In this document: positions 34,168 to 62,580 of the stretch, piece after piece
How the letters are laid out: every line of letters starts with the position of its first letter
How positions within the stretch are numbered: position 1 is the first letter of the stretch
Origin: Minisyncoccota bacterium
Lineage (GTDB): Bacteria > Patescibacteriota > Minisyncoccia > Phycocordibacterales > PALSA-1337
Assembly (NCBI GenBank): GCA_035495115.1
Contig: DATJGJ010000007.1
Location: 3,136 to 67,135, forward strand
Direction of reading: 5' to 3'
DNA length: 64,000 bases
The notes under the pieces: generated by a model
Databases searched by the model: none
The model's input: only the letters and a program-made list of their open reading frames with translations
Told to the model about the DNA's origin: nothing
Program-made: the position numbers and the translations under genes

Positions 34168-34179
34168 AATTGATTACTA

Positions 34180-34624
34180 ACACGAATATACAAATATGCA
34201 CACAAATACCACTAATAACAAAACCATAATTTATCGTGAACTATCATATAAAATATATGGCTTATGCTATAAAACCCATAATATACTTGGACGTTTTAGA
34301 AATGAAAAATCATATGCAGATTATATTGAAAGCCTTATAAAAGATAATGGATTATTGTATCAAAGAGAAAGGCCCCTACCGAAAACATTCTCAGAAGAAA
34401 AAGCACGGAGAAATATTCCTGACTTCATAATTGAAAATAAGATTATTCTTGATTTAAAAGCAAAACAATTTATTACAAAGGAAGACTACTATCAGATGAA
34501 AAGATACTTAGTCGCTTCGAATATGAAACTTGGTATCATTGCAAATTTTAGGCAAATAAGAATTTATCCTAAACGAATTGTTAATTAATTCGTGGTATTT
34601 GTGTGCATATTTGTATATTCGTGT
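34180..34624. repeat. Perfect 33-bp inverted repeats (34180-34212 and 34592-34624) bracketing the GxxExxY ORF; possible MITE-like cassette or long RNA stem
   Basis: The left arm ACACGAATATACAAATATGCACACAAATACCAC is exactly the reverse complement of the right arm; the ORF's ATG lies inside the left arm and its stop is 3 nt before the right arm. Confidence 0.8.
34196..34588 (+). CDS. GxxExxY family protein (small PD-(D/E)xK-like)
   Basis: 130 aa with ...ESLIK..G..YQRERPLP...IPDFIIENKIILDLKA... matching the GxxExxY family pattern. Confidence 0.7.
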   Translation: MHTNTTNNKTIIYRELSYKIYGLCYKTHNILGRFRNEKSYADYIESLIKDNGLLYQRERPLPKTFSEEKARRNIPDFIIENKIILDLKAKQFITKEDYYQMKRYLVASNMKLGIIANFRQIRIYPKRIVN

Positions 34625-39860: not shown

Positions 39861-39905
39861 AATTATTTGATTTTAAGCTGAATTCGGGTAAACTAGTGTG
39901 GTATT

Positions 39906-39987
39906 GCCGGGATGGCGGAATTGGTAGACGCATACGACTCAAAATCGTACGGAGAAATCCATGGGAGTTCGATTCTCCCTCCCGGCA
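39906..39987 (+). tRNA. tRNA-Leu (anticodon CAA), class II long variable arm
   Basis: Acceptor GCCGGGA/UCCCGGC, anticodon stem UACGA/UCGUA with loop CUCAAAA, long variable arm, T-arm GGGAG-UUCGAUU-CUCCC, discriminator A; CCA not encoded. Confidence 0.85.
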
Positions 39988-40023
39988 CAGCGAAATTTAG
40001 AATATTCACCGAAAGCAAGACGG

Positions 40024-40148
40024 AAACGAGTCGCACCTGTGACTCGTTTGGGAGAATCGAAAAGGCTGAGTATATGGAACGGAGCGAAGCGAGTACCATA
40101 CGAAGCCTGTACTGAAGCTGTAAGCTTCGATTCTCCCTCCCGGCACCA
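40024..40148 (+). ncRNA. tRNA-linked structured element, copy A, co-oriented and downstream of tRNA-Leu(CAA)
   Basis: Four parts in order. Hairpin at 40025-40048. 12-nt GGGAGAATCGAA at 40050-40061, the exact reverse complement of the tRNA-Leu T-loop plus 3' T-stem. Conserved core CTGAGTATATGG...CGAAG...CTGTAC at 40066-40125. Copy TTCGATTCTCCCTCCCGGCA+CCA of the tRNA 3' end at 40126-40148, which has CCA encoded, unlike the tRNA gene itself. Confidence 0.5.
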
Positions 40149-52854: not shown

Positions 52855-54843
52855 CTATTGTACAGCCTCAGAACTGATAATATATGATCTCGTTTTTGGC
52901 CCAAAATACCCTATTGACGGAAGAATGTTATGCACTGCTTGGAATTTAGCCAAAGCTTTTTGTGTTAGCAGACCAAAATATATAGTTTCATGGTTCAGTG
53001 AACCTAGACCAGTAACAGCAACCAGGAATCCGTGCGTATTTAAATACTTTTGAAGGTTTTTGACATCAGAGCCACTGCTACCCATTTGCAATGAACGATT
53101 GAAGGTACCAGTAATTGTGGGAGATGTTTTAAGGCTATTTAGATAAACTGTAGTTGAGGCGCTTGGAGCAAGAAGCGTCGCAAGATAGGAAGGCGAAACA
53201 AACCCCCCGCTATGGGAAACAGTAGTAATTGACGAGCTAGGTATCGTAACTGTAGGACACGGATTTGTAGTAAACGTCTGGTCGGAAGTGCTTGTTGATC
53301 CGATAATATTACTTGCAAAAGCTTGATAATGATACACAGCACCACAATCCAAATTTGTTAGGTCTTGAGAGAAAGCGCCGAAAATATACTCTCCTGTCGA
53401 AGATGCTGATTGCCCATAACTTGAAGTTTTACCAAAATTAAATCCTCGCACTGTAGTTGTTGCCCCACCATCAGTTAGCAACATCGCATTCAAAGTGGCT
53501 GATGCGGCGCCGATCAAAGTGCTCGTGGCGTCAGTGATCATAGGAGCAACTGCACTGATAGTATTTATCGTGCCTGTAGTTTTTTGGTGATCATAGGATG
53601 TCTCTACAGTAACATTAACCCCACCTGTACCAATAAAAATATCCTTGGCGCCTGTTCCAGAAGATGAGAGCGATCCACCAAATAGATTTACTAAGGAATT
53701 GTTATTAGTTGATACTGCGTAATTGGCTGCATCTGAGCCGCTTACATTAATTATCGTATTATAAGAATTGATGACGTTTGCAGCTACACCTTGAATTCCT
53801 CGCGAATACGCGCCAACAAATAGTAACGGATTAACGGTGGCTGTTATATCACTCTGATAGATATTGACTCTATTTCTACTTGACCAATTGAATGTGTCAT
53901 ATTTTGTATCGATTGACACATTGACCAATGTAGAGGATATATCTGTTACAGGAGGAACACCAGACTGATTGAGATTAACGTAAAAACCATCAGTTATGCC
54001 ATGAACATAAATATTTTTAAATGATGCATGGATAAAACCGTTATCGCCATAATCACCAGAAAGATTATTTGAAATAATATACTTATAGCCCGATGTGTTC
54101 AAATCAACTAGTGATAAATCAGAAACCTCTGAACCATCAGCAAAAGAGAGGACAGGAATACCGTCCTCAACATTTGTGCTTTTGATTATAGTGTCATATT
54201 TGCCTGACCCATGCAGATTTATGTGACCAGTTGGCATTTGGTACTGATATGAGTCAAAAACAGTACCGTCACCATCATTAAACGTGAGTGACGTCGTTGC
54301 ATATGAAGCAAACCATGAGCCAGCATCATCAGTAAAAAAATCTATCTGATACATTGAAGCGTTGGGCACCGCAGGCCACGTCACTTGTATGTAAAAATTA
54401 TTGCCAGAATTATTATCTGGAAGCATATTCGTATCGTATGCAGAGACCCATGTCCCGTTTACTAATGCCGAAATATGATATTTGTAACTAATCCCTCCAG
54501 TCACTTTGTCACCTGAACCATAATGAAAAATTGGCGTTATCAATGTTGACGGCTTATATAAACTAATCATGCTTCCAGTTATGTCAAAAGTACCTGAAGA
54601 AAGATACACTGAATCACCGTCTACTGCAGCCGCTATTGCTGTCAAAAGAGCTTGTCCTTGAGCAGAATCGGAACTTGAGGTTGCATTATAGACAGATACA
54701 CTTTGATCACTGTGGACAACACGAATTAAATCAGTTGATGCAGAAACATTATTAACTAATATAAGATAAAAAAATAAAAAACTTCCTAAAAAATATTTAA
54801 TCCGCATATATTTTATATTGTACCCTTTTACATACCTAGGCAA
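52855..54843 (-). CDS. Large secreted protein with a C-terminal peptidoglycan-binding domain
   Basis: Signal/TM N-terminus (true start may be the internal Met giving MRIKYFLGSFLFF); Ser/Thr/Asn-rich beta-rich body; C-terminal PG_binding_1-like (GSSGSDVKNLQKYLNTHGF...GYFGPKT). Confidence 0.5.
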   Translation of the reverse strand: MPRYVKGYNIKYMRIKYFLGSFLFFYLILVNNVSASTDLIRVVHSDQSVSVYNATSSSDSAQGQALLTAIAAAVDGDSVYLSSGTFDITGSMISLYKPSTLITPIFHYGSGDKVTGGISYKYHISALVNGTWVSAYDTNMLPDNNSGNNFYIQVTWPAVPNASMYQIDFFTDDAGSWFASYATTSLTFNDGDGTVFDSYQYQMPTGHINLHGSGKYDTIIKSTNVEDGIPVLSFADGSEVSDLSLVDLNTSGYKYIISNNLSGDYGDNGFIHASFKNIYVHGITDGFYVNLNQSGVPPVTDISSTLVNVSIDTKYDTFNWSSRNRVNIYQSDITATVNPLLFVGAYSRGIQGVAANVINSYNTIINVSGSDAANYAVSTNNNSLVNLFGGSLSSSGTGAKDIFIGTGGVNVTVETSYDHQKTTGTINTISAVAPMITDATSTLIGAASATLNAMLLTDGGATTTVRGFNFGKTSSYGQSASSTGEYIFGAFSQDLTNLDCGAVYHYQAFASNIIGSTSTSDQTFTTNPCPTVTIPSSSITTVSHSGGFVSPSYLATLLAPSASTTVYLNSLKTSPTITGTFNRSLQMGSSGSDVKNLQKYLNTHGFLVAVTGLGSLNHETIYFGLLTQKALAKFQAVHNILPSIGYFGPKTRSYIISSEAVQ

Positions 54844-55566: not shown

Positions 55567-55609
55567 GCGATTTATTCGTAGTATTCGTGCGCATATTCGT
55601 GGATTCGTG

Positions 55610-56512
55610 TTACGCCTTCTCTTCACTCACAATAGTCACAGCCTTTGCAACGATCGGTAGAATATCGTTATAAAAGTTAAGTTCCAATATTGCATCAAGC
55701 TTGAACCATTTTGCATCAGCAAGACCTGGCTTCTTGGCAAGTGTAAGTGTCTTGAAATCTGACTCTGCCAGATAGTAGTGTACTTGCTTGCGAATCTTGC
55801 CAATCTCAGGGTCGTTTGCGATATATTCATTTTCACCAAGATCAGCGACTATCTTTACTTCGAGACCAATCTCTTCCATCACCTTGTTGATAGTTCCCTG
55901 CTTTGGATCAACTTCTGGAGGAATCTTACCTTTTGAGAGTGTCCAGTGACCGAAAACGTCATAAACGAATGCCATATAGACATCTACGCCATCACGAGCA
56001 TATACCACTGCACCACCCAAGTGTTGAATTGGCATTTGCTCATAAGGGACTTCGACCTTCTTTTTCTTTATCGGCTGGGCGTCTTTACCTGGTTCTCCGA
56101 GCTCCTTGTAAACTGCACCGAGCACACCATTGACGAAACGACCACTTGTCTCACCACCGAAAGTCTTTGCAAGCTCAATCGCTTCATTGATAGCCACCTT
56201 TGCTGGTACTTCGACACGATCCGCAAAGAGAAGCTCATAGAGACCGAGACGGAGTACGTTACGATCTATCGGAGAGATCTTGTCGATTGGCCATTCGGGA
56301 GCAGCCTTCGATATGATGTCATCGAGTTCGCCATGCTTTGCGAGAATGCCCTTCATAAGCTCGTCCATAAAAGAAACATCAGCTACTCCTGGTGCGAATT
56401 CTTTTGCATCGCGCAGGATGATAGCTGAAGCTGTAGTGTCTTTTCGGCCACAAAAATCCCACTCAAAAAGTGCCTGGAGGACAACTGAGCGTGATAAATG
56501 TCTATTTGCCAT
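55610..56512 (-). CDS. nusB: Transcription antitermination factor NusB fused to a C-terminal Nudix-like domain (degenerate Nudix box)
   Basis: The N-terminal ~145 aa are NusB-like (RSVVLQALFEWDF...ETSGRFVNGVLGAVYKE). The C-terminal ~150 aa show a Nudix fold pattern (GGAVVYARDG...WTLSKGKIPPE...NKVMEEIGLEV), but RE of the Nudix box is replaced by NK. Confidence 0.65.
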   Translation of the reverse strand: MANRHLSRSVVLQALFEWDFCGRKDTTASAIILRDAKEFAPGVADVSFMDELMKGILAKHGELDDIISKAAPEWPIDKISPIDRNVLRLGLYELLFADRVEVPAKVAINEAIELAKTFGGETSGRFVNGVLGAVYKELGEPGKDAQPIKKKKVEVPYEQMPIQHLGGAVVYARDGVDVYMAFVYDVFGHWTLSKGKIPPEVDPKQGTINKVMEEIGLEVKIVADLGENEYIANDPEIGKIRKQVHYYLAESDFKTLTLAKKPGLADAKWFKLDAILELNFYNDILPIVAKAVTIVSEEKA

Positions 56513-56938: not shown

Positions 56939-57011
56939 GCGCCCATAGCTCAGCTGGTAGAGCAGATCCCTCTTAAGGATAAGGTCGTAGGTTCGATCCC
57001 TACTGGGCGCA
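56939..57011 (+). tRNA. tRNA-Lys (anticodon CUU)
   Basis: Acceptor GCGCCCA/UGGGCGC, D-arm GCUC-AGCUGGUA-GAGC, anticodon loop CUCUUAA (one mismatch at 27-43), T-arm GUAGG-UUCGAUC-CCUAC, discriminator A. Confidence 0.75.
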
Positions 57012-57139
57012 CAAACCGAGGGCACGTAGGTTTGTGCGAGCCGCAGGCCTGACGAGGCCGAGGCGGGGTCGCGAGATTTTCTAGCAAGAAAATACTCGTG
57101 ACCACAAACATGGTAATATAATAAACAATCAAATAATTT

Positions 57140-57221
57140 GCTGGGATGGCGGAATTGGTATACGCACATGCCTTAGGAGCATGCGGAGTAATCCTTGGGA
57201 GTTCGAGTCTCCCTCCCAGCA
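57140..57221 (+). tRNA. tRNA-Leu (anticodon UAG), class II
   Basis: Acceptor GCUGGGA/UCCCAGC, anticodon stem CAUGC/GCAUG with loop CUUAGGA, long variable arm, T-arm GGGAG-UUCGAGU-CUCCC, discriminator A. Confidence 0.85.
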
Positions 57222-57290
57222 CAAAATTGACCTTCAGCATTTTTTGTGTTATTTTGTTTTTGAACCCTGAACAATCAACAATACAAAGTT

Positions 57291-57737
57291 ATGTCTCATG
57301 AAATAAATGAAATGGTGAACATCCTGCTCTATGCAGGCGCCCCTGAAGCAGACAAGAAACTGACACTCAAACTTTTGGCCATGCTCGATCAGCTGCATGT
57401 CAAGAACATCAGCATTACCGCTGGTTTCGTTGATGATGACGCAGCGATCGGTGCCCTGGAATCACTCAAGAAAAGCACTGGGCACATCGATTTGGTCGCC
57501 ATCAAATCGGGAAGCAAAAAAACTCGTTTTCGCGTGGCCTTTCACGCTGAGAAACTCGGTATCAAGACAGTAGTCTGGTCAGCTCACACGCATTTTGTGC
57601 ATTCGTGCCATAATCTTAAAGCATCGTTTGTCCGTGTCAGATACAAAGACATGGAAAAAGATCTGGACTTGGTAGCTGAGGCTATCAAGCACGAAATCAA
57701 TAAGCTACGCAAACCCAAGCCAGTTCTTCCCAAATAG
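57291..57737 (+). CDS. Hypothetical protein
   Basis: 148-aa ORF; no recognisable family. Confidence 0.35.
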   Translation: MSHEINEMVNILLYAGAPEADKKLTLKLLAMLDQLHVKNISITAGFVDDDAAIGALESLKKSTGHIDLVAIKSGSKKTRFRVAFHAEKLGIKTVVWSAHTHFVHSCHNLKASFVRVRYKDMEKDLDLVAEAIKHEINKLRKPKPVLPK

Positions 57738-57935
57738 CGATCGAATCTACCAATCCCTGTATAGTCACTTTGTGATCTATATGGGGATTTTGTATCTATT
57801 GACTTTTACCCATATTTGTAGTAGTATAGTACTAAAGTGCATTCGGAGGTGAAAACCTCAAGAGCACGTTGAAAAACCAATAACAAAAGGGTTTAAATTC
57901 CTGAGCGAAATGCTCAAAAACGAAAGGACCGAAGA

Positions 57936-59399
57936 ATGAAAAAGATTCCTATGAATCCGGTAACTGGCCTCGAGGTCAGCCCGAATGGTGACACACTTGT
58001 GTTCAATCCTCCGGCAGGCGGTGCTCCGCACGGCATGGAGGTCATTGTCGTTGACTCTGCAGTGCTTATCGAAGGTAAAAAGCATGAGCCTACGCTCGGC
58101 GTTAAGCTCGACAAAGTTGATGCAAGTCAGTCATGTAGTATTGGATTGGCTGGGATGGAATGGAGAGGTGAAAACTATCCCCTCAAGCCCGGCGGCAAAT
58201 ACCATGTCTATGTGACTGTCCTCGGTGGGAAGGTCGGCAACGAAATGCGCGCGGATAGCGAGCTCGCCACGATCAGCTTCTTCATGAGTTCCACTCTCGC
58301 CAGCATCATCCAAGTTCAGTATGAAATGGATCGCTTCGAGAAGGAGTTGAAGAAAAAATATGGCGAAGACGACGTCCGACGCCTGATTAGCGAAAACGAC
58401 CTTGCCATCAGCGAAGGCTTTGATGAGCAGGTGAAAAAACTCGCAAATGGCGAGATTGCCGGCTCTGAAACGATCAAGAAGTTGCAGGAACAGGTCAAGT
58501 CATTGAAGGACACCATCGAAGCAATCAAGAAAGCTCCGGCGGCTCGTTCATCTACGAACTCGACATGCTTCACGCCTGCTGAAGTGCTCGGTGCTCAACA
58601 AAATTGGCGCTGGGCACTGGCTGTTGCGTGCATCCTCGGCTTGGCGATAATCGCTGGACTGCTGATGAGCAACTACTGGTCGCACTATTCTAGCGCTCCT
58701 GCGCCTCAACCCACGTGGGCTGGCGTCTGGGGTGGCACGATGGGCACCAATGATATCCCGATCGGTTCGACGTTCGCCACAAGCGGCTGTTCGACAAATG
58801 GTGTCGGTGCCGTTCAGGCATTCAACAACACCGGGACCATCAGCAGCAACAACAACTGCAACTTCGGCATCAAGGTATATGTCCTCCCCCCGCCAGTGGT
58901 CAAAGTGCCCTGTCCTGTCCAGTTCCAAAAGAATGAGACACAGTGCGCTCCTGAACCTACGCCACCACCTGCCCCAAAGCAAGCAGTGCTCCAGGGAACA
59001 GATAGCGGCGACCAAAGCGAGGAGTGTCAGGAAATCATCAGTGAGGACCTGTCGCAGGCTCCGCTGCCGAGCACGCAGGTTATCTGCAGCTCTGAGACAC
59101 GACCGATCGTTGGTGTTGGCATAGAGCTTCAAAGCTATGCCGACTACAACCATTCGATTGGGTGGAACGGGGGCTGGGACGATGACCATCACAGAAGAAA
59201 CTGTTACCCACCTGTAAGACGGTGGCCTGCATATAACCCCATCCCCTTGCCTCCTGTTCAACCCGTAGGCGTAGTATGTTTGGATGGTAATTATCAAGGC
59301 AATTACGGTAACGTTGGCATTGTGAAAGCAAGAAACAATCCCCGAATGGTTGTGGCGTCAAATGTGAGCCGCAGACAAGTGGGCGGAAAACACCGCTAA
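57936..59399 (+). CDS. Hypothetical membrane protein with a Cys/Pro-rich C-terminal region, in a GC-rich (about 54%) island
   Basis: 487 aa; central TM (WALAVACILGLAIIAGLLM); C-terminal CxxC, CPxQ and PPP motifs; GC clearly above the genome background. The Arg-rich antisense ORF 58548-59297 is judged a GC artefact. Confidence 0.4.
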   Translation: MKKIPMNPVTGLEVSPNGDTLVFNPPAGGAPHGMEVIVVDSAVLIEGKKHEPTLGVKLDKVDASQSCSIGLAGMEWRGENYPLKPGGKYHVYVTVLGGKVGNEMRADSELATISFFMSSTLASIIQVQYEMDRFEKELKKKYGEDDVRRLISENDLAISEGFDEQVKKLANGEIAGSETIKKLQEQVKSLKDTIEAIKKAPAARSSTNSTCFTPAEVLGAQQNWRWALAVACILGLAIIAGLLMSNYWSHYSSAPAPQPTWAGVWGGTMGTNDIPIGSTFATSGCSTNGVGAVQAFNNTGTISSNNNCNFGIKVYVLPPPVVKVPCPVQFQKNETQCAPEPTPPPAPKQAVLQGTDSGDQSEECQEIISEDLSQAPLPSTQVICSSETRPIVGVGIELQSYADYNHSIGWNGGWDDDHHRRNCYPPVRRWPAYNPIPLPPVQPVGVVCLDGNYQGNYGNVGIVKARNNPRMVVASNVSRRQVGGKHR

Positions 59400-59575
59400 T
59401 AACAACACATTACACAGCCCGTAGATGCAAATCTACGGGCTTTTTTTAACGAAATACTAACTTGACTTTTCAAGTAAAACATGATAATATAGTATAGTAG
59501 TGTGAGATGTGCCCCATTGGGACACAATGACCTTTAAAATAACGTCAGTAAACAACAACCAGTAAGTGCACAAAA

Positions 59576-60220
59576 ATGCGCTTACACAACCGGAGAATTG
59601 TAATGGAAACTATTCTGAGAAAGATACATGTCTATTGGTTATCGTTCACCATGTTTTTTGTGAACCGCAATCCTGAGACAGGCTATGTCCAGTGGACATG
59701 GCGGCCGTGGGTCAATTTTGCCGGCCGTTTTGTGTGCTGTGCGCTTCTGTTCCTTGTGGCAGCATTCATCGTCGCAAGATACCAGATTCGAGACCTGACA
59801 CCGTTCTTCACATCGACGACACAGACTGAAACAGTCCTGACAGAGGCTAGTCCGTTGATCGCTGGTTATGTGGTGAATGGAGAATCGCAAGATCCGCCCG
59901 TGACGAACATTCTTGTTGTGGTCAAATCAGGCGAACTCAAACTGCTGAAAGGTGAAAAAGTTATGCTTGATTTCCACGATGGCAATGGGCGTTACGGGAT
60001 CTCGGCGAGCCTCGGCAGACTTGGCGCAAAATGCGTCGTATGGGATCCTGATCATGATATCAAACCCATTATTCTCAGCGACAATGTCCCATTGGATCTT
60101 GATCACGGAGAAGGAACAAAAACGACACACATTTGTGTAATGGCAGCTGATGATTCAGAAGTTCTGATGTATCAGTTGACAAAGTGGTATCATCGAAGAT
60201 TGGTTGTCGCTCAAAAGTAA
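59576..60220 (+). CDS. Hypothetical membrane protein
   Basis: 214-aa ORF with two N-terminal TM helices; the start could be the internal Met at 59603. Confidence 0.35.
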   Translation: MRLHNRRIVMETILRKIHVYWLSFTMFFVNRNPETGYVQWTWRPWVNFAGRFVCCALLFLVAAFIVARYQIRDLTPFFTSTTQTETVLTEASPLIAGYVVNGESQDPPVTNILVVVKSGELKLLKGEKVMLDFHDGNGRYGISASLGRLGAKCVVWDPDHDIKPIILSDNVPLDLDHGEGTKTTHICVMAADDSEVLMYQLTKWYHRRLVVAQK

Positions 60221-60229
60221 AACAAACGC

Positions 60230-60266
60230 AACAGGCGAGGAATTTTATTCCCCGCCTGTTTTTTTG
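60230..60266. terminator. Intrinsic terminator (AACAGGCGAGG...CCCCGCCTGTT followed by TTTTTTT)
   Basis: Stem-loop plus T-run between converging genes. Confidence 0.55.
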
Positions 60267-60280
60267 AATCTTATTTTCTC

Positions 60281-60529
60281 TTACTGGCCTGAAATCGTAT
60301 TTGATATGAAATATACGATACCCCACGCAGATGTCATAATGACCAAACCGATGATACCTGCGAGCATGTGCCATCGTCCCTTTTCACGTGCAGACGAGTC
60401 ATCGCCGTTCATCATCATTTCTACGATGCCCCAGACGAACACGATGATCGCCACGGCGAACATGAGCATAATGATCGGATCGACGATATTGGTGATGATC
60501 GGGTCGATAACTTTAGCGAAGGTATCCAT
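60281..60529 (-). CDS. Small T4SS-pilin-like (TrbC/VirB2-like) membrane protein, paralog 1
   Basis: 82 aa: two hydrophobic helices separated by a charged loop (NGDDSSAREKG), the architecture of VirB2/T4SS pilins. Confidence 0.5.
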   Translation of the reverse strand: MDTFAKVIDPIITNIVDPIIMLMFAVAIIVFVWGIVEMMMNGDDSSAREKGRWHMLAGIIGLVIMTSAWGIVYFISNTISGQ

Positions 60530-60538
60530 ACGTTACTT

Positions 60539-60898
60539 TTAAGGAACCTGTGGAGGATAGTTCAGCTGCGGGAAATTCTGAGTAGGAGCGTTCGTATTTG
60601 TCCTGAATGTATTTGAGAGAATGTTGACGAGACCCCAGATAGAGAGGATGACGAAGAGACCAACGATACCCCAGAGAACTGCACCACCAATCGACTTGCG
60701 CTTTTCTGGATCTTCAGCAGCCATGATGTAACGTACGACGTTGAAGATGATATACAAAACTGCAAAAGCGATAAGGATCTCGATAATGGTATTACCGATA
60801 TTGGTCAACTTGTATGTGAGGGTATTCACATCAGTGATCGCCTGAGCACTGACGAGTGCAGGAGCGAAAGCGGCAACGAGTGCGATGATTTTTTTCAT
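60539..60898 (-). CDS. T4SS-pilin-like (TrbC/VirB2-like) secreted membrane protein, paralog 2
   Basis: Signal peptide MKKIIALVAAFAPALVSAQA, helix, AAEDPEKRK loop, helix. Confidence 0.55.
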   Translation of the reverse strand: MKKIIALVAAFAPALVSAQAITDVNTLTYKLTNIGNTIIEILIAFAVLYIIFNVVRYIMAAEDPEKRKSIGGAVLWGIVGLFVILSIWGLVNILSNTFRTNTNAPTQNFPQLNYPPQVP

Positions 60899-60998
60899 TT
60901 TCTTATAAGCTAATGGATAATAAATATAATACTATGTATCAAGTATACCTCGACTCATTCAAGAGGGGCAACCTGATATGTGGATTAGTTAGGCGCTT

Positions 60999-61463
60999 TT
61001 AATGAGGAAAGACGTTTGTAATATCGTTCCATGAACTATGCGAGAAGCTCGAGTTCCCTATACCGAACGTATTTTGAAGGATATTGACCAATCCCCACAT
61101 CGATAAGATGACGAAGAAGCCAATAACACTGTACATCACATATGTGCCAGCTTGCTTTCGATCTTCATTCGGCATGATGAAATATTTGAAGACATAGTAT
61201 ACGAACACAACCACTGACAATGCGATGAGAAGGAAGAGGATTTGATTCAAGTAGCCGATGACTCGCTCGATGAGCGAACAAAGAGTCAGATTGCCTGTAC
61301 TACACTGCGTACCAGAACCTGCACTGTTGTAATTGCTACCGTATGTATTACCGTATGACGCTCCCCCAGTGAGATTTATGTTGATTCCTCCGATCGCTGC
61401 GAACGACAAGACCGGGCTGACAAGGATAATAAAAGCGAATAGTGGAATAAGTATTTTTTTCAT
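60999..61463 (-). CDS. T4SS-pilin-like secreted membrane protein, paralog 3
   Basis: Signal peptide MKKILIPLFAFIILVSPVLSFAA, variable Gly/Asn/Ser region, helix, PNEDRKQ loop, helix. Confidence 0.55.
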   Translation of the reverse strand: MKKILIPLFAFIILVSPVLSFAAIGGININLTGGASYGNTYGSNYNSAGSGTQCSTGNLTLCSLIERVIGYLNQILFLLIALSVVVFVYYVFKYFIMPNEDRKQAGTYVMYSVIGFFVILSMWGLVNILQNTFGIGNSSFSHSSWNDITNVFPH

Positions 61464-61473
61464 ATGAATAATA

Positions 61474-62058
61474 TTATTGGTTATTAATCGCATTTTGCGC
61501 ACTCTGGATCACCGCCGGATTGACAGTCCCTGTTGACTGGAGCGTATTGATGATCACCGTAATCAGTATACGCGCGCCCAAGATGACGCCGATACCCACA
61601 ACCACCCACAGGAGCTGGTTGCTGCGCTTCTTGATCTCCTCAGGGTTACCGCGAGCAAGGACGAACTGGAGACCGACCCACATGAGCATGATCACACCAA
61701 AGATGACCGCAAGATAACTGACGATCTTCATAAAGGTAAAGATAAGATCGCTGATCGAATTGACTCCTTTGAGCGGATTAGAAAGTGTGGTGACAGTATT
61801 GCTGTTGTTGCTACCAGCACTTGTATTTTGCTTTGCGGCGCTTGTATTTGTAGGATCGATCGGTGATCCAGTCATGGTTGCAGGCTGAGATGGTGAACCA
61901 GTCATCGTGCCAGGTACATCAGTGGCTGGTGTAGGATTTGAACCATAGTAGTTAGGTAAAGTTGTATCAGGGTTTGTGCTTACATCATTAGCCGCAAAAC
62001 TTGCCACTGGAAGCATGAGGATGGCCAATACTACGACCGATACAATTTTTGTTTTCAT
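61474..62058 (-). CDS. T4SS-pilin-like secreted membrane protein, paralog 4
   Basis: Signal peptide MKTKIVSVVVLAILMLPVASFAA, Thr/Pro/Ser-rich variable region, helix, GNPEEIKKRS loop, helix. Confidence 0.55.
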   Translation of the reverse strand: MKTKIVSVVVLAILMLPVASFAANDVSTNPDTTLPNYYGSNPTPATDVPGTMTGSPSQPATMTGSPIDPTNTSAAKQNTSAGSNNSNTVTTLSNPLKGVNSISDLIFTFMKIVSYLAVIFGVIMLMWVGLQFVLARGNPEEIKKRSNQLLWVVVGIGVILGARILITVIINTLQSTGTVNPAVIQSAQNAINNQ

Positions 62059-62085
62059 GTGTGAAAAATTCATATGAATAAATAA

Positions 62086-62580
62086 TTATGGGTTGCCAAG
62101 CAACTTGGTGAAGGCCGAGTTCCCTGTAAGCCAGCTCAAAATCTGATACACGATGAACCAAGCCGACAGCATGATGACAAATCCCCACAAAATCTTTGGA
62201 AAAATATCTTTTGCCTTATTTCTGTCGCTATCTGTGCCTTTCAACATGAGATAACCTGCATATGTGAAGAGTACGATAGCCGCAAAAACACCGAGCACCA
62301 TAGCAATATTTATAAGATGTTGAACAGTGAGCATTGCTCCGTTAAAATTACATACGACATAGGGTCGAGTCTGGCCAGTTGGCTTGCCATTATTGTCATA
62401 TAGAGGAACAGGTTTGTTGATGGCCGGATTATCAGGCCCATCGCACACCACAATTCTGAACGATGATTGTGTAGGATCTTCACTCGCCGCTGGTGAAGTG
62501 AGCGTCTGCACACCTTGAGCAAAAACGACTGGTGTAAGCAGTAAACTGAGGGTAAAGAGTGAGAAAAGAGTTTTTTTCAT
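62086..62580 (-). CDS. T4SS-pilin-like secreted membrane protein, paralog 5
   Basis: Signal peptide MKKTLFSLFTLSLLLTPVVFAQG, variable region with two Cys, helix, KGTDSDRNKAKD loop, helix. Confidence 0.55.
   Translation of the reverse strand: MKKTLFSLFTLSLLLTPVVFAQGVQTLTSPAASEDPTQSSFRIVVCDGPDNPAINKPVPLYDNNGKPTGQTRPYVVCNFNGAMLTVQHLINIAMVLGVFAAIVLFTYAGYLMLKGTDSDRNKAKDIFPKILWGFVIMLSAWFIVYQILSWLTGNSAFTKLLGNP

Follow-up and report, generated by a model that had tools for sequence, protein, structure and literature searches.

Introduction

Two kinds of described locus come close to the one analysed here. The VARTIG module of Thermococcales is a hypervariable surface-gene locus (Makarova et al. 2021, PMC8416519), and arrays of VirB2-like pilin genes, with 2–11 divergent paralogues, are found in 383 Patescibacteria assemblies, where they are thought to serve host interaction and where no adhesin was detected (Microb Genom 2025, PMC12102498). 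Our subject is a cassette of three genes lying between a tRNA-Leu and a pilin array of this type, at positions 57227–60260 of a 64-kb stretch of contig DATJGJ010000007.1 (the window, by which we mean all of its 64,000 nucleotides), which derives from a metagenome-assembled genome of Candidatus Paceibacterota, in the candidate phyla radiation (CPR) or Patescibacteria. The three open reading frames (ORFs), all on the forward strand, are gene A (57291–57737; 148 aa; VL335_01100, HTK33126.1), gene B (57936–59399; 487 aa; VL335_01105, HTK33127.1) and a third gene (59576–60220; 214 aa; VL335_01110, HTK33128.1), and NCBI labels all three 'hypothetical protein'.

Paceibacteria are ultra-small, uncultured bacteria. 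A preliminary description, made from the letters of the window, had read the region after the tRNA as a GC-rich island encoding two membrane proteins, and its composition and position as signs of horizontal acquisition. The comparison with relatives points elsewhere. We consider it probable that 57227–60260 is a resident, vertically inherited cassette specific to a clade of Paceibacteria and evolving very fast, and not an imported island.

Results

Sister species carry counterparts of the cassette

Relatives were collected by scanning a genome collection with the NusB-NUDIX protein, which gave 80 species-level loci with NusB from 97% down to 59% identical, and by a metagenome scan with the pilin, which added 22 further loci. 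The closest species, L001 and L002 (NusB 97%), carry ORFs of 466 and 571 aa, respectively, in the position of gene B and on its strand. The layout of the three proteins (the trio) is alike: an N-terminal part rich in beta structure, with a strand of the 'YYL..VT' type, is followed by a coiled coil and by the motif 'RWALA', which leads into a single transmembrane (TM) helix; after the helix come an Asn-rich 'NC.N' stretch and a Pro-rich C-terminus with a basic tail. BLASTP aligned the gene B product collinearly with the L002 protein (E=6e-5, 21% identity) and the L001 protein with that of L002 (E=5e-9), and gene A has a positional counterpart in L002, a 148-aa ORF to which it is 23% identical (E=8e-7), so that orthologues across the sister species stand at ~21–27% identity. 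When the three proteins were compared by tblastn with all these relative loci none was found, and iterative HMM searches started from the trio recovered no further members among 5,772 locus ORFs, nor in an earlier set of 3,927 ORFs. Exact-protein contig look-ups returned the same organism in two samples only.

At the DNA level the flanks align with L001 and L002 at 72–87%, and the interval from 57225 to ~60229–60293 is unalignable except for two non-coding blocks. One of them, 60229–60271, corresponds to the terminator that closes the cassette and is 98% identical to L002 4577–4536. The other is the promoter and 5′ leader of gene B (57792–57886, forward strand). Here 57792–57884 is 78% identical to L001 9161–9068 and 82% identical to L002 8113–8024, and in both genomes the match lies directly upstream of the 466- and 571-aa ORFs. 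The block comprises a promoter (TTGACT at 57799–57804 and TAGTAT at 57822–57827, with a spacing of 17) and a hairpin at 57837–57867, GUGC-AUUC-GGAGGU-loop-ACCUC-AAGA-GCAC, whose stems are invariant and whose loops vary; the leader RNA folds at -23.6 kcal/mol (z=-2.7). A profile of the leader used in nhmmer gave E-values of 1e-26 to 5e-28, in the window and the L001 and L002 loci only. It corresponds to no Rfam family, and its pattern was not found in metagenome or viral collections.

The significance of these identities depends on how far the genomes have drifted. Four-fold degenerate sites of NusB, of the ABC-type solute-binding protein (SBP) and of one pilin gene are 36–60% identical among the trio, and neutral sites between these genomes are close to saturation. 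Because the leader is 78–82% identical while four-fold sites have fallen this low, the comparison points clearly to purifying selection on this non-coding sequence. For a protein without residue-specific constraint, our own calculation gives an expected identity of ~20%; since the observed values equal this expectation, the coding sequences of the cassette appear to evolve at about the neutral rate. Both halves of the B protein are equally diverged in the trio.

An ordered cassette occupies the same slot across the clade

In relatives the slot between the last pilin gene and tRNA-Lys/L32 holds an ordered cassette (D, C, B, A) on one strand. A is a small cytosolic protein, B a large one with one non-terminal TM helix (226–912 aa), C a 2-TM protein of ~330 aa, matching SPFH/Band_7 (PF01145) in two of eight cases with a best E of 3.8e-9, and D a small protein whose TM helix is N-terminal. 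The C gene is present in most relatives, examples between B and D being L002 5050–6066, L082 9256–10230 and L086 6110–7171, and absent in the window, L001 and L088; in the window only 176 nt separate gene B from the third gene, with no SPFH gene between them.

B-like genes were counted within 7.5 kb upstream of L32 and defined by one non-terminal TM helix, a Trp just before it and an Asn-rich stretch within ~140 aa after it; in the proteins themselves the Asn-rich stretch lies 40–140 residues past the helix. Such a gene was found in 14 of the 19 species whose NusB is at least 75% identical and in 0 of the 33 species below that value, and therefore the cassette is clade-specific and the definition is not one that any locus would satisfy trivially. 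Gene B of the window has the position, strand and architecture of an A-B-(C)-D cassette. The preliminary description had allowed that conservation of its genes in syntenic position across the lineage would speak against acquisition, and such conservation is largely what L001, L002 and the species counts display.

Within the wider clade B proteins have single modules in common, independently of C and D. For example, the C-terminal domain of B is 43% identical between L011 and L100, whose C and D proteins reach only 27–31%; L015 and L018 have the C-terminal domain of B in common and no match in C; and between L013 and L086 the C proteins are 73% and the D proteins 67% identical, while no more than a 47-aa piece of B is shared. 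The N-terminal domains have the look of FN3/Ig-like folds, which we rejected as a real domain assignment for want of Pfam support, the sole match being Ig_J (E=0.057) in L100.

The GC excess belongs to a single gene

The preliminary description placed a jump from a background of ~41% GC immediately after tRNA-Leu(UAG) and extended it over 2.5 kb. A GC rise is real, and each of these particulars needed correction. Mean GC of the window is 45.1% (SD 2.4), and in the 64 kb the only 500-nt windows above the mean plus 2 SD are those starting at 58301–58901, which include the peak (57.8%, at 58601), and one at 40801. The rise starts ~700 nt beyond the tRNA, the interval 57223–57935 holding the 148-aa ORF that had been missed, and it is confined to gene B. 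This gene has 53.3% GC, the highest of the 57 ORFs (z=2.15), and a 1464-nt window over it is the richest anywhere in the 64 kb; gene A (46.3%) and the third gene (46.8%, gene-level z 0.44) are at background. Gene B also has a GC3 of 0.59 (z=1.8, third highest of 57 genes) and a GC2 z of 1.25. At the gene level the excess is moderate.

Codon and tetranucleotide usage had been proposed as a check. In GC-normalised tetranucleotide usage the 3′ half of gene B is an outlier (z=-2.7), and this deviation is not unique, usage being equally deviant elsewhere in the window, for example at 52.5–54.8 kb and 43.5 kb. Synonymous codon usage of the three genes is native (z of -0.88, -0.72 and -0.32). Across relatives B-like genes exceed the GC of their own locus in 15 of 16 loci, by 5.9 points on average (+7.6 in L001 and +8.0 in L002). 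Because the excess is kept in the counterparts we read it as belonging to the gene itself and not as the mark of a donor, its source being a Pro/Gly/Ala-rich composition together with the higher GC3.

The adjoining tRNA is a hot spot in a relative and the window genes are not cargo of that kind

Both tRNAs reported beside the region were confirmed. tRNA-Lys(CUU) (56939–57012, forward strand; ARAGORN, and Rfam RF00005 with 68.5 bits) is the left anchor of the variable slot and is 99–100% conserved among relatives; tRNA-Leu(UAG) (57140–57222, forward strand; ARAGORN and Rfam) has its 3′ end toward the cassette. The pair adjoins the slot in L001, L002 (inverted), L003, L007 and L015. The spacer between the two tRNAs (57013–57139) is GC-rich, and the block 56939–57225 is ~86% conserved with L001 and L002; the spacer is above spacer expectation because four-fold sites are only 36–60% identical. 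In L002 8859–9600 the pair is inverted relative to L32, with an extra NUDIX-like 143-aa ORF between tRNA-Leu and L32, which is a local rearrangement at the slot border.

The preliminary description had seen no integrase and no duplication of the tRNA-Leu(UAG) 3′ end as an att site, and directed searches agree. None of the three cassette ORFs gave an integrase or recombinase match with Pfam, NCBIfam or PHROG, the best att candidate (57219–57234 / 59568–59583, 16 nt at 81%) is at chance level, and nothing was found of the decayed tRNA 3′ end that might have been expected near 60250. No window-wide repeat of at least 35 nt lies inside 57225–60270, and the only such repeat touching 57.0–60.3 kb is tRNA-Leu(UAG) itself against tRNA-Leu(CAA) (39904–39989, 83%). 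A diversity-generating retroelement was considered as well and rejected, as repeats of 35 nt or more, whether direct or inverted, that involve 57.9–60.3 kb are absent from the whole 64 kb; no reverse transcriptase was found among the ORFs scanned with Pfam, a scan that covered part of the window ORFs.

Plasticity at this tRNA, which the preliminary description had implied, does exist in a relative. In L003 (NusB 91%; CAIRAF010000013.1, 1042–3300) the 3′ end of this tRNA-Leu(UAG) is directly adjoined by genes for a large serine recombinase (Resolvase+Recombinase+Zn_ribbon_recom) and a rolling-circle Rep (REP_ORF2-G2P, E=8e-21), on a contig that ends 3.3 kb beyond, and the segment looks like a small mobile element integrated at the tRNA. 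The slot of L014 contains a RhuM-family gene. The tRNA-Leu(UAG) site is a genuine integration hot spot in the lineage, on the evidence of one relative, and the three window genes are not cargo of an L003-type element.

Products of the three genes

Two of the proteins had been called unknown, and the database searches made with all three agree. Word-index searches of 5.8 billion proteins with A, B and the third protein returned the query alone, as did an exhaustive phmmer search of 1.84 billion representatives with B, and comparison with Pfam, NCBIfam, PHROGs, PADLOC and PDB sequences gave no match above noise. A weak FapA match (E=0.0065, 16.6 bits) was rejected, the cutoff being 31. None of the three proteins matches a PADLOC defence model or a phage family, and no significant polymorphic toxin or immunity domain (LXG/Rhs/CDI/PT-type) was found with Pfam, NCBIfam or PADLOC in the window proteins or in 19 counterparts. 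The only weak PADLOC matches were in the L002 571-aa protein, to PDC-S06 (E=0.0019, 14.8 bits) and a CorA-like model (E=0.036), both within the coiled coil.

Gene B encodes a bitopic membrane protein, beta-rich over residues 1–118 and helical or coiled-coil over 119–199, with a single central TM helix at about 224–246 (nt 58605–58673; placed at 227 when scored as a B-like gene) directly preceded by NWRW. An Asn-rich stretch follows at 285–320 (nt 58788–58895; 7 Asn in 25 residues at +39) and ends in KVYVLPPP. The central helix and the Cys/Pro-rich C-terminal region noted before were recovered, including 'VPCPVQF' and 'PPPAP', in a C-terminal half rich in Pro, Gly, Asn and Cys (8 Cys); the CxxC motif that had been listed is absent, the Cys residues being at 67, 211, 232, 285, 308, 326, 337, 364, 384, 423 and 448. 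The protein has no signal peptide and ~220 aa precede the TM helix, 8 of the 11 Cys lie after it, and the trio shows a charge bias, with K+R counts flanking the helix of 1 vs 0, 4 vs 1 and 2 vs 0, on which grounds we infer an N-in/C-out topology. A single-sequence AF2 model was unusable (pLDDT 34).

The reading frame of gene B is unlikely to be accidental: none of 1000 composition-matched shuffles equalled its 487-codon stop-free run (maximum 319), and GC3>GC1>GC2 periodicity is seen in the sense frame only. The long antisense ORF inside it (249 codons, 58548–59297, reverse strand), previously dismissed as a product of high GC, is indeed an artefact, a shadow frame codon-aligned with gene B that has the atypical pattern GC1>GC3 (GC1/2/3 = 0.596/0.516/0.556); the L001 and L002 counterparts of gene B also contain antisense ORFs of this sort.

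The third gene had been described as encoding a 214-aa membrane protein, and an ORF of that length with one TM helix (~aa 44–66) is present. Its true start is likelier to be 59603, which gives 205 aa, because GGAG stands 8 nt upstream and the NCBI call is also 205 aa. The ~140-aa region after the helix was judged beta-rich by eye, and the 214-codon run was reached in 0 of 1000 shuffles. The protein had no family or PDB match and no detectable similarity to the 147-aa protein of L002 (E=21), and a profile of wider-clade D proteins gave E about 5, so that position and architecture alone are common to it and its counterparts.

Gene A, which is without a TM helix, encodes a cytosolic protein in whose predicted secondary structure strands and helices alternate in a flavodoxin- or Rossmann-like manner. 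The single-sequence AF2 model, of low confidence (pLDDT 57.6), has the same alternation, and Foldseek with this model returned generic Rossmann- or receiver-like folds only.

Besides the leader promoter of gene B, a consensus scan placed promoter-like sites before gene A (TTGACC-17-TATTTT with TG, 57227–57255, forward strand, a consensus match only) and before the third gene (TTGACT-17-TAATAT with TG, 59462–59490, forward strand). The promoters of gene B and the third gene both contain TTGACTTTT, and a duplicated element was considered and rejected, only TTGACTTTT and a TATAGTA-like -10 being in common. An intrinsic-terminator-like hairpin of 11 pairs, 6 of them GC, followed by TTTTTTT, lies after gene B (59416–59441, forward strand), and a bidirectional terminator of 14 pairs (60230–60260) separates the cassette from the pilin array.

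Neighbouring genes and other features of the window

The cassette is set in core chromosome, with ClpB, topoisomerase I, alanine racemase, an aminoacyl-tRNA synthetase, NusB and RNase III around it. ClpB, an SMC-like ATPase, a trypsin-like protease, RNase III, the NusB-NUDIX fusion and L32 lie on one flank; on the other are five VirB2-like pilin genes (60281–62580, reverse strand; PF18895 T4SS_pilin, Pfam E=4e-12 to 7e-6), convergent with the cassette, and then the SBP, a methyltransferase and GyrA. The order SBP, five pilins, slot, tRNA, L32, NusB is kept among relatives, and in a profile scan matches to PF18895 or PF04956 were confined to the five pilin genes. These are arranged in tandem, with N-terminal extensions of widely differing length and an order conserved across the clade, and two of them share a 59-nt stretch (60605–60663 and 61065–61123, 75% identity).

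At 52855–54843 (reverse strand) lies another envelope gene that is fast-evolving or variable, an AT-rich ORF of 662 aa (38.8% GC) whose sole domain is a C-terminal PG_binding_1. Both its flanks can be aligned with L001, L002, L003 and L007, the DNA of the ORF with none of them, and in tetranucleotide usage it deviates as much as the gene B region. A repeat of ~85 nt stands beside tRNA-Leu(CAA), tRNA-Tyr and tRNA-Trp (40040–40135 and 46494–46585, forward; 43148–43251, reverse), with partial copies at 43102–43164 and 43257–43319. For the three copies the predicted fold is an outer stem with two hairpins, 13 of the 30 predicted pairs being kept through double (compensatory) changes, and no Rfam family was matched at the gathering threshold; the repeat is a candidate structured RNA or REP-like element. 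Finally, inverted repeats of 48 nt, 88% complementary (34178–34227 / 34577–34624), surround a 130-aa ORF (34196–34588) whose GC of 28% is the minimum of the window, and a similar third repeat arm lies at the RNase III/NusB junction (55572–55612).

Discussion

We favour, as probable, vertical inheritance of a resident cassette in this clade. Under this reading three separately promoted genes on one strand would encode a cytosolic alpha/beta protein (A), a single-pass protein (B) and a small single-pass protein in the D position, the SPFH/Band-7 gene between B and D having been lost by this genome or never present. Near-neutral change of the coding sequence would leave orthologues only ~21–27% identical and database searches empty, while intact ORFs, the order of domains, the TM helix with its flanking Trp, the Asn-rich stretch, the high GC and above all the promoter/leader hairpin would have been maintained despite drift. 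A strong promoter and a 5′-terminal hairpin would give a stable, abundant mRNA. The product of B is probably surface-exposed, as its composition and the neighbouring VirB2-like pilin array suggest: the cytosolic beta-rich domain and the coiled coil would oligomerise it, and a stalk made of the Asn-rich beta stretch and the Pro-rich segment would carry a variable, Cys-containing tip through the wall to the surface, where it might contact host cells or be a phage target, which would explain its rapid turnover. A and the D-position protein would be its likely cytosolic and membrane partners.

Several results weigh against parts of this picture. Homology supported by sequence is confined to the trio (the E-values of 6e-5, 5e-9 and 8e-7, and the leader), and beyond it only position, architecture and composition connect the loci; the 487-aa protein was not recovered with a profile built on the TM/Asn-rich core of B proteins from the wider clade, and the wider-clade D-family profile matches neither the 214-aa protein nor that of L002. 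Having no similarity to any counterpart, the third gene could be a non-homologous replacement. Since the same tRNA is an integration site in L003 and B proteins share single modules only, exchange of alleles or modules by recombination may add to divergence in situ. The positive-inside signal across all B-like proteins is weak (54 vs 40 K+R), the structure model of B failed (pLDDT 34), which leaves 'beta-sandwich', 'stalk' and 'tip' as interpretations drawn only from patterns in the sequence, and the cassette is convergent with the pilin array and not co-transcribed with it, conserved proximity being all that would speak for a functional link.

An old or degraded island, in which foreign DNA of higher GC entered at tRNA-Leu(UAG) and the integrase and att sites later decayed, is in our view unlikely. 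It would account for gene B being the highest-GC gene of the window with deviant tetranucleotides in its 3′ half (z=-2.7), and for the two adjoining tRNAs, at a site that the L003 recombinase and Rep and the L014 RhuM gene mark as used by mobile DNA in the clade. However, the locus has no integrase, att repeat, phage or plasmid gene, codon usage is native, only one of three genes is GC-rich and the excess recurs in 15 of 16 positional counterparts, the promoter/leader and the terminator match those of sister species about as well as the flanks do, and no donor homologue exists among the 1.84–5.8 billion proteins searched, nor the leader in viral or metagenome collections. The syntenic counterparts largely refute a recent event, and the inference of horizontal acquisition drawn in the preliminary description is not upheld; the absence of this cassette type from 33 more distant relatives permits an acquisition in the clade ancestor, and ancient acquisition or invention there is possible. 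That the ORFs are spurious or decaying, long only because stop codons are AT-rich and the DNA is GC-rich, non-coding or pseudogenised, is hardly credible, and we reject it. The lack of homologues and domains, the low-complexity composition, the near-neutral rate of change and the antisense ORF, an example of how GC-rich DNA makes ORFs here, would all suit it, but the 487- and 214-codon runs were never reached in 1000 shuffles, the codon periodicity is restricted to the sense frame, long ORFs of the same strand and architecture recur in 14 of 19 species despite saturated neutral divergence, a promoter-like site, a Shine-Dalgarno sequence and a terminator accompany every gene, and the leader is under purifying selection.

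A polymorphic effector or partner module, with an exchangeable C-terminal tip on B, a small membrane protein as immunity factor or partner, and swaps occurring at the leader and the terminator, strikes us as improbable too. It draws on the sharp borders, with conserved non-coding blocks against unalignable coding DNA, on the single modules that wider-clade B proteins have in common, on the small hypervariable membrane protein that follows B, and on VARTIG as a conceptual precedent (PMC8416519); elevated GC3 would, as we infer, fit GC-biased gene conversion at a recombination hot spot. Yet no member has a toxin, immunity, LXG, Rhs, CDI or secretion-associated domain, B is TM-anchored without an export or release signal, divergence within the trio is as great in its N-terminal half as in the C-terminal one, unlike toxins with a conserved N-terminus and a variable C-terminus, and observed identity equals the expectation under neutral drift, which makes exchange unnecessary.

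A further suggestion about the role of the cassette can be made tentatively, one to which we give a small but real chance: that it is an undescribed host- or phage-facing recognition module of episymbiotic Paceibacteria, in which B would be the missing surface adhesin or specificity determinant working alongside the pilus array, its tip shaped by an arms race and possibly by module exchange, and its expression governed by way of the conserved leader hairpin, which would be a new cis-regulatory RNA.

These results bear on how such regions are read. A compositional 'island' beside a tRNA can be a resident gene that has drifted past database recognition; here ~95 nt of promoter and leader, together with architecture, showed an orthology that a search of 5.8 billion proteins missed. 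Loci of this kind inflate the counts of 'orphan genes' and 'HGT (horizontal gene transfer) islands' in CPR genomes, and the cassette is a concrete candidate for host or phage surface interactions of uncultured Paceibacteria, which have no known adhesins.

Among known systems, islands targeted to tRNAs resemble the cassette in its place beside a tRNA 3′ end, its local compositional anomaly and the L003 element at the same tRNA; they differ in that the cassette has no integrase, att duplication, mobility or cargo genes, and has native codons and syntenic counterparts. In relatives, the C gene followed by a small TM protein D, whose C-terminal part reads as beta-rich, recalls operons of SPFH (Band 7) and NfeD proteins, and the C-D pair resembles pairs of the qmcA-ybbJ type. 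However, an SPFH gene is missing from the window, SPFH operons are not known to include a counterpart of B, and no D protein matches NfeD (PF01957). The type IV secretion system (T4SS) and pilin loci of Patescibacteria are close in location, as the cassette sits directly beside five PF18895 pilin genes, but its own genes match no T4SS profile and lie on the opposite strand, split off by the bidirectional terminator, and no VirB4, VirB6 or VirD4 was found among the larger window ORFs scanned with Pfam.

With VARTIG the cassette shares a fixed slot between conserved flanks, small variable genes that come after a large hypervariable protein built of domain modules, and members that have only single modules in common. 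It differs in having no detectable Ig or other Pfam domain, in a B protein anchored by a mid-protein TM helix and not secreted, and in the divergence of both halves, compatible with neutral drift; it belongs, moreover, to another phylum and has no sequence relationship to VARTIG. The three proteins belong to no described family, and the phenomenon is a known one, that of a fixed slot holding a hypervariable envelope gene.

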